DNA from: an uncultured Erysipelotrichaceae bacterium
Lineage (GTDB): Bacteria > Bacillota_I > Bacilli_A > RF39 > UBA660
Length of the DNA: 64,000 nucleotides
Assembly: GCA_902800945.1 (NCBI GenBank)
Contig: CADCFX010000007.1
Coordinates: 1,376 to 65,375 of the forward strand
Direction of reading: 5' to 3'
Shown: piece after piece, positions 55,488 through 58,051 of the stretch
How the letters are laid out: each line of letters begins with the position of its first letter
Position numbering within the stretch: position 1 is the stretch's first letter
Translations under genes and position numbers: made by a program
Notes under the pieces: model-generated
Database searches by the model: none
Told to the model about the DNA's origin: nothing
What the model saw: the letters and a program-made list of their open reading frames with translations, nothing else

Positions 55488-56186
55488 TTATGAATTCAAA
55501 ATCCAGTCAATAATTAGTTTTTTTATTTCGTAGTATTCTTTTTCTTCGAATTGCATATTAGCTATACAGAATTTTTTGGAAGCAATATGTGAGCAAAACA
55601 TGCATTCATATAAATCAAAACAATCTTGGATAAAAAGCGAATTGTTTATTTTGTTGGAACAAATTACGTTATAACTATTGCTACATTTTTGAGAGTCGTC
55701 ACATCTAATACAAAAGCTACAAGCGCTAGATCTTTGGGATGCTAGAAGGTATTCGCTATTTAAACATGAATCACAGAAAACTAGGTTTTTTGAATCGCTA
55801 CAATCTGAGCATCTATATATATTTTCACTTCCATAAATAGTGTCGCTTTTTGCAACATTAATAGAATCGTATACTCTTTCAGTGGTTGTTAAGTTAATGC
55901 TATTCCATATATCTATTAATTCTTGCAGATTATTTACTTCTTTTTTGGGAAGCATCCATCCCTTTTCTACCTCTCTTTTTTCCATATTTTTGTTGGATAT
56001 GTATCGACCGCTATTAATTGAGTCGGCCCATGTTATTTCATTAGTAGTTGAATCATTAACTTGTTTTGGTAATTTAATATCGAATGCATATTTTTCTAAT
56101 AGAGTATCTATAGAATAGTTATTATCCTTATCAAATATGTTTTTAAATATTTTATTAACAATTTCTAGGGCTAATGTATCATTCAT
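55488..56186 (-). CDS. Cys-rich repeat protein (probable multi-Zn/Cys-repeat domain), unknown function
   Basis: 232 aa. The C-terminal half is a run of Cys-containing short repeats (CSDCSDSKNLVFCDSCLNSEY...CSFCIRCDDSQKCSNS...CFDLYECMFCSHIASKKFCIANMQFEEKEYYEI). Its ATG overlaps the upstream ATPase stop (ATGA). Confidence 0.7.
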   Translation of the reverse strand: MNDTLALEIVNKIFKNIFDKDNNYSIDTLLEKYAFDIKLPKQVNDSTTNEITWADSINSGRYISNKNMEKREVEKGWMLPKKEVNNLQELIDIWNSINLTTTERVYDSINVAKSDTIYGSENIYRCSDCSDSKNLVFCDSCLNSEYLLASQRSSACSFCIRCDDSQKCSNSYNVICSNKINNSLFIQDCFDLYECMFCSHIASKKFCIANMQFEEKEYYEIKKLIIDWILNS

Positions 56187-58051
56187 TTTTTCACAACCTT
56201 TCTGCTTGATGAAGTAGATATTAATATGTCCTTTAATTTTATGTTATTACTTATAGTGAAATTAGTTTTTATATTGTTTGAATCATGATTATTACTTGAG
56301 GTACTTTTGTCATTTGAAACAGTTTTTATCCTTGGAATACTAGTATAGTCTAGAGTTGAACCTTTGAATGCCGGGAGTAAAATACCGTTAGTATCTATTC
56401 TTGCTATGCATTCTCTGTTTGATAACTCTGTTAATAGTTTTACTTTTTTTTCTCGTGTGTCATCAAGAGGTATTTTCATATTAAAATTATCTACTAAGAT
56501 GTTAGCGTCTAGTTTCGAAACTCTAAATATGAAATAATTTATAACATTTGCAAAAATTGAATTTTTTAAATCTTCAGAAATCTGGTTGAAGTATTGTCCG
56601 GCCAGAATTAGAGATAGATTATATTTTCTAGCTTCTGATAAATACCTGGATAATATTGGATTTTCTACTACCGCAACTTCGTCAATGATGAAAATTATAT
56701 GTTCATCTATTTCTCTTTTTTGGATTATGGTTAATAATTGCTGCATTATTAAGCCAGCTATGGTTTTTGTAACTTTATCCCCAAGTCTTGTTCTATCTAA
56801 GGAAAATATGGTTAGAAAATTATCGTCAATAGCTTTTTTTAAGCTTTCGGGACTCTGTTCGTCATTGAAAACAGGTAGCATTTCCATTTCGTCAATAAAT
56901 GCGATAATAGGGGACAGTGCTTCTCCATATGATTTTGTTCTTAATTCATTAAAGTCTGATAAGAAGAATTCAATTATACTCATAGGTAGATTGTATTTTA
57001 GTTCTTTTATGATACTATTTCTAAATTCTGTGTCTAGAAGTAGTTTCCTTAGATTCTTAAAATTAAATGTTTCGTTTGTTAATAGTAAGTGAATAGAGTG
57101 CCTTAATACTCTTTCTAGTTTGGAATTATATTGATCGGCAATTAAAGATTTAAATAAATCTAATAATAGTTCTGTCGAAGCGACAACATCATCACTATTG
57201 TTGATAAATAGGTCAATACTATCAGAATGATTTTTGAAGTCAATAACTTTTCCTATACCGCCAATATCTTCTTCTAAGGAAGCGTGAGGATCTATAACAA
57301 CTACCTTGTATTGATGTTTTAAATGTTCATTTTTATTAATGTTATTTATTAATAAACTTATAAATTTTGATTTTCCACATCCGGAAGCTCCCATTATTAT
57401 ACTATGCTTGTTAAAGTTGAAGTTATTTTGGTTTAAGTAAAAATTTCCTTGTAAATAGGGAAATGTATCTACAGATAATAGAGCGTTACTAGAATCGGAA
57501 CTTAGTAGATGTAAAACCTTGTTTATGTCTAAATACTTCGGAGTCCCTTTGTATAAATATCTTTTATTACCTTCGAAATCAGCCGATAGTATATAAGCTG
57601 GAAGAGCAATTAAACACTTGTATTTCTTTATAATATTGTTTTTGTTTATGTAATAACTAACTTTGGATTTTATCTTGTTATCATAAATTTTTTTAAATGT
57701 TACTTCTAGGTATTCTAGAGTGCCGATATTTCTTATTTCAGCATAGTTTATTAAATCTATAATACTACCATCTATTTTAGGAATAGTTGGTAATATGGCT
57801 TGGGGTTTGGGAAGGATTAGTTCTTTTGCTGGTTTTAATAAAAAAGAATTTAGATTATTAATGGTAGGAGGAAGAGAACATTTTGTGTTAACAAAATATC
57901 TTATTTGATTCTTGTCGTTGCTAATGATTATTCTCCATTTCCTAAATAGACCATTATAATCTGATATTGTATTTATTAGTTCTAACCATTCTTCTTGATC
58001 AATATATTTCTTGGTTAGATATATTTCGGTTGTTAAATTCATAATACTCAC
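56183..58051 (-). CDS. HerA/FtsK-superfamily (DUF87-like) P-loop ATPase
   Basis: 622 aa. Walker A IIMGASGCGKSKF (about 57368-57400), VVVIDPHASLEED, Walker B IIFIIDEVA (about 56672-56700), and LSEARKYNLSLILAGQ. The roughly 220-aa N-terminal domain is unassigned. Confidence 0.75.
   Translation of the reverse strand: MSIMNLTTEIYLTKKYIDQEEWLELINTISDYNGLFRKWRIIISNDKNQIRYFVNTKCSLPPTINNLNSFLLKPAKELILPKPQAILPTIPKIDGSIIDLINYAEIRNIGTLEYLEVTFKKIYDNKIKSKVSYYINKNNIIKKYKCLIALPAYILSADFEGNKRYLYKGTPKYLDINKVLHLLSSDSSNALLSVDTFPYLQGNFYLNQNNFNFNKHSIIMGASGCGKSKFISLLINNINKNEHLKHQYKVVVIDPHASLEEDIGGIGKVIDFKNHSDSIDLFINNSDDVVASTELLLDLFKSLIADQYNSKLERVLRHSIHLLLTNETFNFKNLRKLLLDTEFRNSIIKELKYNLPMSIIEFFLSDFNELRTKSYGEALSPIIAFIDEMEMLPVFNDEQSPESLKKAIDDNFLTIFSLDRTRLGDKVTKTIAGLIMQQLLTIIQKREIDEHIIFIIDEVAVVENPILSRYLSEARKYNLSLILAGQYFNQISEDLKNSIFANVINYFIFRVSKLDANILVDNFNMKIPLDDTREKKVKLLTELSNRECIARIDTNGILLPAFKGSTLDYTSIPRIKTVSNDKSTSSNNHDSNNIKTNFTISNNIKLKDILISTSSSRKVVKK

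Follow-up and report, generated by a model that had tools for sequence, protein, structure and literature searches.

The 64,000-nt stretch analysed here (the window), from an uncultured Erysipelotrichaceae bacterium (contig CADCFX010000007.1 of assembly GCA_902800945.1, positions 1,376 to 65,375), carries on its minus strand two overlapping genes, one for an ATPase of the HerA/FtsK superfamily and one for a smaller partner protein with a repetitive C-terminal half, which together are an obligate, co-evolving two-gene module, associated far beyond chance. We tentatively read the two proteins as subunits of one dedicated soluble cellular machine that is vertically inherited, and not as a classical anti-phage defence or conjugation system; this machine is best read as a translocase of two subunits with a dedicated cellular role. 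An earlier note on the same DNA had put the pair forward as a candidate defence or DNA-handling module. Its defence part was not borne out, as the pair belongs to no PADLOC system, has no defence-island flanks, lies in a housekeeping context in the candidate phyla radiation (CPR), diverges in a vertical-like manner and has no phage or close plasmid relatives. A DNA-handling role is plausible by analogy with related motors.

Both open reading frames (ORFs) and the ATGA stop/start overlap described in the earlier note are present in the sequence, the overlap indicating translational coupling of the two genes. Among 84 loci of close relatives, the ATPase gene stands directly upstream of the partner gene in 83, with a junction of -4 to +23 nt, and the sole exception ends at a contig edge. 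The order is kept in 80 metagenomic loci (22-52% GC) from distant partners, where an ATPase homolog of 558-778 aa precedes the partner wherever the upstream DNA suffices; the exceptions are three loci (L139-L141, e.g., 7007-7456 in L139) with a 149-aa solenoid-only partner fragment and no adjoining ATPase. The co-occurrence elsewhere, on which the earlier note had made its proposal depend, was thus observed among close and distant loci, and the ATPase and the partner are the only genes that the distant loci have in common. The distance matrices of the two proteins are closely correlated, with a Mantel r of 0.957 overall and of 0.90 inside the close clade (permutation p = 0.001), the partner being more conserved than the ATPase. 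As lower bounds, more than 2,000 homologs of the ATPase and more than 1,300 of the partner exist, the partner sequences forming 332 clusters at 50% identity in the exhaustive search.

The pair is carried by uncultured Bacilli of the gut that bear the labels Erysipelotrichaceae, Tenericutes or Ca. Coprovivens, those related to the window coming from ruminant gut metagenomes, and by Ca. Saccharimonadales/Saccharibacteria, Ca. Dojkabacteria and Ca. Micrarchaeota, and the database copies of the pair are all labelled "hypothetical" or "DUF87 domain-containing". The partner exists in single-module and double-module forms: in archaeal loci, which are adjoined by archaeal marker genes, it reaches ~525 aa with its whole architecture tandemly duplicated, and more paralogs follow. 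Tandem arrays of 2-4 partner paralogs behind the ATPase, single- and double-module, occur in some CPR-like and Micrarchaeota loci (L121 358-2089, L124 739-1778, L168 4256-7690, L169 2259-5445).

Scans of the partner against Pfam, NCBIfam and PADLOC gave no match, its sole family-scan match being a weak one to a PHROG of uncharacterised function (phrog_15341, 5e-5), and neither Foldseek against PDB and BFVD, which covered solved and viral predicted structures, nor a profile search against PDB sequences returned a meaningful match. In the AlphaFold2 (AF2) model, which has a predicted local distance difference test score (pLDDT) of 80 and a predicted template modelling score of 0.83, an alpha/beta domain at the N-terminus is followed by a long series of short strands, each of 3-6 residues throughout residues 121-198 (pLDDT ~75-82), and a helix forms the C-terminus. 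Column statistics reveal a hexad with a small residue at positions 108, 114 and so on to 156 and again, past a 3-residue shift, from 165 to 195, an aliphatic residue at +3 and an aromatic one at +4, and the autocorrelation of the profile has maxima at lags 6, 12, 18 and 24, of which that at 12 is the highest. When 38 full-length relatives are aligned, C207 and N210 do not vary at all and S114, S120, C198, I208, Q212 and Y218 hardly do; only C198 and C207 among the 13 cysteines are conserved in at least 90% of the sequences, the remaining repeat cysteines being replaced by Ser, Asn or Thr, most of them by Ser. The Cys-rich repeat array of the earlier note therefore holds as regards the repeat, a hexad with a 12-residue period, and not as regards the cysteines, a peculiarity of this lineage at positions occupied by Ser, Cys or Asn across the family. 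Such a composition argues for a small-residue-ladder beta-solenoid and against a metal-cluster array, and the C-terminal half is predicted to form a narrow beta-solenoid of ~8-9 twelve-residue coils with a Ser/Cys ladder. A metal-binding Cys-repeat protein was considered and rejected, since conserved sets of Cys/His ligands are lacking and the repeat positions are mostly Ser in the relatives, as was a Zn-knuckle of the form C195-x2-C198-x-H200-x6-C207, in which C195 and H200 are not conserved. Neither a signal peptide nor a transmembrane (TM) segment was found in the partner.

The ATPase represents a distinct family within the FtsK-HerA superfamily, to which the earlier note had assigned it and to which Pfam, profile comparison with solved structures and Foldseek likewise lead. 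Pfam matches to TrwB_AAD_bind (28.9 bits, cut-off 20.5, residues 214-514) and DUF87/HerA (29.0 bits, cut-off 23.2) are weak and above threshold, and the models for FtsK, VirB4 and EssC match below their cut-offs only: FtsK PF01580 scores 15.8 bits vs. a cut-off of 24, short of a family-level FtsK/SpoIIIE motor, and the VirB4 NCBIfam model TIGR00929 22.3 bits vs. 643, short of a full-length VirB4/CagE protein. A profile of 29 diverse homologs resembles the solved structures of EssC, HerA and TrwB around the P-loop only. Foldseek with the predicted model returned HerA and VirB4 at a probability of 0.97-1.0, the top matches being SIR2-HerA and DUF4297-HerA chains (8wod, 8suw, 8ziq) and the best local structural match VirB4 (4ag5, probability 1.0). 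The protein is about equally weakly similar to HerA, VirB4 and VirD4/TrwB and is a member of none of them.

The motifs quoted in the earlier note (GASGCGKS, VVIDPH, IIDEVA, ARKYNLSLILAGQ and FCIANMQFEEKEYYEI) all occur in the translations of the pair. Since G218xSGxGKS225, D251-P-H253, D454-E455, E470-x-R-K473 and Q483-Y484 are invariant across homologs at 24-100% identity, the enzyme is intact and active-looking. Its N-terminal domain (~205 aa) is without assignment, as the earlier note had stated. In the AF2 model (pLDDT 62.5 overall) residues 1-160 are reasonably confident and fold as beta-alpha-beta-beta-alpha-beta, followed by beta-alpha-beta3, with long helices, which is not the all-beta HAS barrel, and no HAS-barrel match was obtained in Pfam at E <= 0.01. 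The C-terminus is modelled as disordered with a short terminal helix and no winged helix of the kind found in the FtsK gamma domain. No TM segment was detected in the ATPase, whose 19-residue Kyte-Doolittle maximum is 1.18 with the peak at Walker A; over 119 homologs this maximum has a median of 1.34 and a highest value of 1.72. Most family members carry a variable low-complexity linker and then a C-terminal peptide with the consensus Φ-S/N-L-K/R-D/E-I/L-L-x3-SSSR-K. In one CPR-like lineage, a second DUF87-type ATPase of 777 aa lies ~3 kb downstream of the pair (L091 6981-9314; L144 10995-13328), and the profile of the pair's ATPase matches it weakly (~1e-18).

Chromosome segregation, conjugation, DNA repair and virus packaging all depend on FtsK-HerA motors, as do several defence systems, and in each case it is the partner that sets the task. 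By analogy with these relatives, the ATPase would form a hexameric ring, as the characterised ones do, and would spend ATP on threading a polymer through its pore, most likely DNA or another nucleic acid in view of the basic isoelectric point (pI) of the ATPase (8.8) and the nature of its relatives. The acidic partner (pI 4.85) would bind the ATPase stoichiometrically, the candidate contacts being the N-terminal domain or the C-terminal peptide of the ATPase with the C-terminal helix of the partner, and its rigid rod, estimated at ~4 nm, would act as an adaptor or a gate, either recruiting the motor to a substrate or site or blocking the pore until triggered. In most relatives from gut Bacilli a ligand-sensing Rob-like AraC/GyrI regulator heads the operon, sometimes with a nitroreductase, a combination suggestive of expression induced by chemical stress. 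Hints of a physical coupling come from the protein ends: where the ATPase has the C-terminal peptide, its partner ends ...WIL(N/T)S, and where the ATPase is tail-less (558-574 aa), its partner has a longer C-terminus, which in three of the seven distinct tail-less types ends in VTLKDL or VTVKDV, like the ATPase peptide VSLKDIL (empirical p 0.0016-0.01, 6-mer core). This pattern is suggestive of a short peptide able to sit on either subunit, and it is confounded by phylogeny.

A cellular role is favoured by the housekeeping neighbours, the vertical-like divergence and the retention of the pair in ~0.8 Mb genomes, as well as by a partner more conserved than the motor and by the lack of phage or plasmid copies and of a defence-island signal. 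In Saccharibacteria the pair lies among ArgRS, DnaG, RpoD, S18 and EF-P on contigs of ~0.78 Mb, and in other CPR lineages beside dnaG-rpoD, EF-G, UvrB or GatA, the dnaG-rpoD linkage recurring across CPR lineages. The flanks in gut Bacilli differ between deeper clades and are stable in subclades. A neighbouring chromosomal gene that four of these genomes share with the window is 67-82% identical, the partner being 74-81% and the ATPase 68-76% identical, and the divergence of the pair thus looks vertical-like, equal to that of its neighbour. The 147 immediate neighbours scanned are heterogeneous housekeeping and nucleotide-metabolism genes, with three recombinases and a few ABC/SMC-type ATPases with defence-like matches. 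An AraC (HTH_18) plus GyrI-like/Cass2 Rob-like regulator is found directly upstream on the same strand in 67 of the 84 close loci, a nitroreductase or transglutaminase-like gene being sometimes inserted after it; no remnant of this regulator was found in the window, which has lost it.

The features of the locus and the parts of the two proteins are collected in Table 1. The ATPase likely starts at ATG 58042, since the alternative GTG falls within the Shine-Dalgarno sequence and a length of 619 aa fits both a database protein, P0121 (619 aa, 100% identical to the window ATPase), and the N-termini of the homologs; an extended -10 promoter of its own seems to serve the pair. Both bracketing hairpins named in the earlier note are present in the sequence, at ~55392-55416 and 58164-58194, and the first, which a consensus terminator scan did not report because it is too AT-rich for the tool, is a probable bidirectional terminator common to the pair and the convergent gene 54641..55408(+). 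The earlier note had the pair convergent to its neighbours, which is true of this downstream gene only, as the pair diverges from the upstream gene 58398..59312(+). The tRNA-associated integration scar that it had placed beside the pair does exist: an att-like direct repeat of ~34 nt (58210-58243 vs. 60078-60111, ~80% identical) consists of the 3' end and flank of a tRNA-Gly gene at 60098-60171, whose 3' end is included in the second copy, and the 1.9-kb segment between the copies (58.25-60.1 kb) excludes the pair. On its upstream side the locus of the pair is bounded by the element at 58164..58243, which also forms one end of a degraded integrated segment. As a known RNA family this intergenic element was rejected, an Rfam search having given no match, and it is accounted for as a duplicate of the tRNA flank. 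Read depth at 58166-58264 exceeds that of the flanking genes in two metatranscriptome-labelled runs, the contigs running into unrelated sequence, and probably reflects repeated tRNA-flank sequence common to related genomes. Two antisense ORFs within the pair, 55840-56118(+) and 56586-57092(+), recur in related loci (clusters c3 and c5) and were rejected as genes, being shadow ORFs of conserved coding sequence.

Table 1. Features of the ATPase/partner locus (window positions) and parts of the two proteins (residue numbers).
Feature	Position	Strand	Remarks
ATPase gene	56183..58042	-	619 aa from ATG 58042; alternative start in the ORF list GTG 58051, 622 aa
Partner gene	55488..56186	-	232 aa
ATGA stop/start overlap	56183..56186	-	ATPase stop over partner start
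Putative expression signals	58047..58073	-	Extended -10 TGtTATAAT 58073-58065; Shine-Dalgarno AGGTGAG 58053-58047; read from sequence
AT-rich hairpin AAGACAAT-TTA-ATTGTCTT between A/T runs	55392..55416	.	Seen in sequence
Hairpin + T-run and att-like tRNA-Gly duplicate	58164..58243	-	Hairpin + T-run 58194-58164; duplicate 58210-58243
Lipoprotein gene	58398-59312	+	Inside att-bracketed segment
Serine recombinase N-terminal fragment	59313-59540	-	75 aa; inside att-bracketed segment
93-aa ORF	59666-59947	-	Inside att-bracketed segment
ATPase N-terminal beta/alpha domain	~205 aa		Family-specific
ATPase P-loop motor	Walker A G218-S225; Walker B D454-E455		Also D251-P-H253, E470-x-R-K473, Q483-Y484
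ATPase all-helical insertion	residues ~286-387		Between Walker A and Walker B
ATPase disordered linker	residues ~559-600
ATPase conserved C-terminal peptide			IKLKDILISTSSSRKVVKK
Partner N-terminal alpha/beta domain	residues ~1-105
Partner beta-solenoid (predicted)	residues ~106-213		Hexad/12-residue-period Ser/Cys ladder; ends with the signature C198...C207-I-A-N210-M-Q212
Partner C-terminal helix	residues 215-231		Ends WILNS

The window is chromosomal and has ~28% GC with a very strong GC skew (~0.3-0.5 in 2-kb windows) and nearly all genes on the plus strand; the pair, being among the very few minus-strand genes, would be transcribed head-on to replication if the plus strand is the leading one. 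It encodes a T-box-GluRS unit, RNase R, ATP synthase subunits, a serpin and GalE, and no conjugation genes were found in it. The T-box leader (8480-8668) scores 113 bits and stands ahead of a gene for a class I Glu/Gln-tRNA synthetase (8641-10353), and the serpin (48884-50179) is a full-length bacterial one (Pfam Serpin, 3e-66) with an apparent N-terminal membrane anchor or signal sequence. Two giant ORFs, 10405-15795 (1796 aa, with an fn3 match only) and 23605-34245 (3546 aa, with a Laminin_G_3 concanavalin-like lectin match only), probably encode surface or adhesin proteins, which is notable in a reduced-genome gut bacterium. Directly downstream of the pair, at 52980-55408, two plus-strand ORFs of 531 and 255 aa have no match in Pfam, NCBIfam, PHROGs or PADLOC, and they are not conserved beside the pair elsewhere.

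Several observations weigh against a dedicated cellular translocase. The ATPase model is poor, so that the formation of a ring and the properties of its pore have to be assumed by comparison with relatives, and the partner has no structural analogue, which makes its role as adaptor or gate conjecture; nor does any homolog of known function link the pair to a substrate. The high variability of the flanks among gut Bacilli suits an accessory or defence module too, and the few neighbouring recombinases or ABC/SMC-type ATPases with defence-like matches point the same way. Tandem partner paralogs, in archaea and some CPR, suit a cargo or sensor equally to an adaptor. The pair is apparently absent from S. 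epibionticum, whose genome annotation holds a VirB4-like protein and a long coupling protein only, and it is therefore not universal or essential in CPR and probably not universal in Saccharibacteria. The 6-mer motif-transfer test gave no signal for the other four of the seven tail-less types or for any archaeal partner, and expression data for the pair are weak, amounting to few low-depth metatranscriptome contigs. The partner is also a poor candidate for a DNA mimic, being only mildly acidic (the charge of the solenoid region is only ~-1 to -7).

An anti-phage HerA-plus-effector system would account for some of these observations: the ring would sense or be activated by phage DNA, and the solenoid partner would be a novel effector or sensor, in the manner of SIR2-HerA and DUF4297-HerA. 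The nearest structural matches of the ATPase are indeed such defence complexes (8wod, 8suw, 8ziq), a PADLOC model, mad8, matches it at 2e-15 with weaker HerA matches, and the operon is a compact one of two genes with variable flanks, near which recombinases or ABC/SMC ATPases that have defence-like matches sometimes lie; the arrays of partner paralogs could represent sensors that have diversified, the pair is not universal in Saccharibacteria, and in the window it adjoins a tRNA integration hotspot. Nonetheless, PADLOC (PADLOC-DB v2), in which a system requires matches for all its components, reported no system, as the partner matched none of its families and the ATPase matched defence models, mad8 and HerA, over the P-loop or core only. 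A nuclease, NADase or protease fold could not be recognised in the partner, which is more conserved than the motor while both diverge like a housekeeping neighbour. In CPR the pair lies in a syntenic context of housekeeping genes, only a few of the 147 immediate neighbours look defence-related, and copies on phages, viral contigs or plasmids were not found. We consider this explanation unlikely, if a serious one.

That the ATPase is instead a soluble VirD4/VirB4-like secretion or coupling ATPase, with the partner and its paralogs as cargo or cargo chaperone, through which ultra-small symbionts deliver rod-like proteins to the envelope or to the host cell, we regard as quite improbable. It would suit the TrwB_AAD_bind and TraG-D_C matches in Pfam, the all-helical insertion typical of coupling proteins, the VirB4 structure 4ag5 as best local match (probability 1.0), the Micrarchaeota and some CPR loci in which several partner paralogs come after the ATPase, much as in motor-plus-substrate arrays, the reduced genomes of the carriers, several of them known or presumed episymbionts, and the giant surface proteins encoded in the window genome. 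Yet genes of type IV (T4SS) or type VII secretion systems or of another channel adjoin the pair in none of ~170 loci, both proteins lack TM anchors and signal peptides, the NCBIfam VirB4 score is 22 bits against a cut-off of 643, and S. epibionticum, whose T4SS includes a VirB4 and a coupling protein of its own, apparently lacks the pair. Since other transfer genes are absent near the pair, it is not a T4SS coupling protein or VirB4 remnant either, an outcome that the earlier note had kept in view. A remnant of a virus or mobile element, e.g., an FtsK/HerA-type packaging ATPase with a capsid-like protein in single- and double-module versions, is largely refuted and most improbable: weak PHROG matches (ATPase to phrog_5156, 2e-21; partner to phrog_15341, 5e-5), the single- and double-module forms and the nearby integration scar speak for it, but no match to either protein was found in 50,697 phage genomes (tblastn) or in IMG/VR contigs, a viral structural analogue was not found for the partner, other viral genes occur in no locus, the ATPase, at 620 aa, is far above the size of packaging ATPases, the partner model is not a jelly roll, and the att-like repeats do not enclose the pair. 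The relatives on plasmids are remote and motor-only (22-27% identical), with no close copies.

The dedicated cellular translocase hence stays our tentative preference. It could also be seen more broadly, and doubtfully, as an undescribed machine of ultra-small host-dependent prokaryotes in both domains (CPR, DPANN and reduced-genome gut Bacilli), spread by ancient transfer and then kept vertically for a job that free-living microbes solve differently, such as work on imported or chromosomal DNA, or the assembly or remodelling of a beta-solenoid filament. The superfamily of the ATPase and the theme of a HerA-type motor with a dedicated partner are known already. The searched literature contains no paper tying the partner or the ATPase family to a function and no description of this combination, in agreement with the earlier note, and the partner fold, the family-specific N-terminal domain and tail, and the distribution over gut Bacilli, CPR and DPANN appear undescribed in it. 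The predicted beta-solenoid partner would be a new fold class for FtsK-HerA motors, with hundreds of sequence clusters lacking annotation, in carriers that mostly belong to lineages of little-known biology (Saccharibacteria, Dojkabacteria, Micrarchaeota and uncultured reduced-genome gut Bacilli) and whose genomes are so small that the genes kept tend to matter. Comprising two soluble proteins only, the module is directly testable, and genetic tools exist for Saccharibacteria. The case also advises caution against labelling each pair of a HerA and an unknown protein as defence.

Compared with the known HerA-partner modules (archaeal HerA-NurA, SIR2-HerA and DUF4297-HerA), the pair likewise sets a gene for an FtsK-HerA P-loop motor beside a dedicated partner, the ATPase having a DUF87 match and its best Foldseek matches in SIR2-HerA and DUF4297-HerA. 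However, the sequence similarity is limited to the P-loop region, HerA proper has a HAS barrel whereas none was detected in the N-terminal domain of the window ATPase, where long helices are predicted, the partner is not a NurA nuclease, SIR2 or DUF4297 and combines an alpha/beta domain with a putative beta-solenoid, and the evolution of the pair looks vertical and housekeeping-like. With VirD4/TrwB/TraG coupling proteins and VirB4 the ATPase shares the TrwB_AAD_bind match over residues 214-514, an all-alpha insertion between Walker A and B and the structural match to VirB4. It differs from them in that no T4SS, relaxase or transfer genes occur in the window or in ~170 related loci, and that it is without the N-terminal TM anchor of VirD4/TrwB, its plasmid relatives being only 22-27% identical and lacking the N-terminal domain. 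The likeness to MADS, an eight-gene operon mad1-mad8 including a methyltransferase (bioRxiv 10.1101/2023.03.30.534895), consists in the match of the PADLOC mad8 model to the ATPase core; this match is limited to residues 210-511, a generic motor, and the other seven mad genes are absent at the window locus. FtsK/SpoIIIE proteins have a membrane domain, whereas the window ATPase has no TM segment.

For the partner, the closest repeat logic is that of the antifreeze protein of the beetle Tenebrio molitor, a beta-helix of 12-residue coils with Cys at every 6th residue, the partner having the same 12-residue period and a small residue at each 6th position. This antifreeze protein (1ezg) is the only PDB sequence match of the same repeat logic, at a non-significant E of 9.7, and the two share no significant sequence or Foldseek similarity. 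The cysteines of the antifreeze protein are disulfide-bonded, whereas the ladder positions of the partner are mostly Ser; and, unlike the antifreeze protein, the partner carries its predicted solenoid between an alpha/beta domain at the N-terminus and a helix at the C-terminus, is predicted to be cytoplasmic and is paired with an ATPase.

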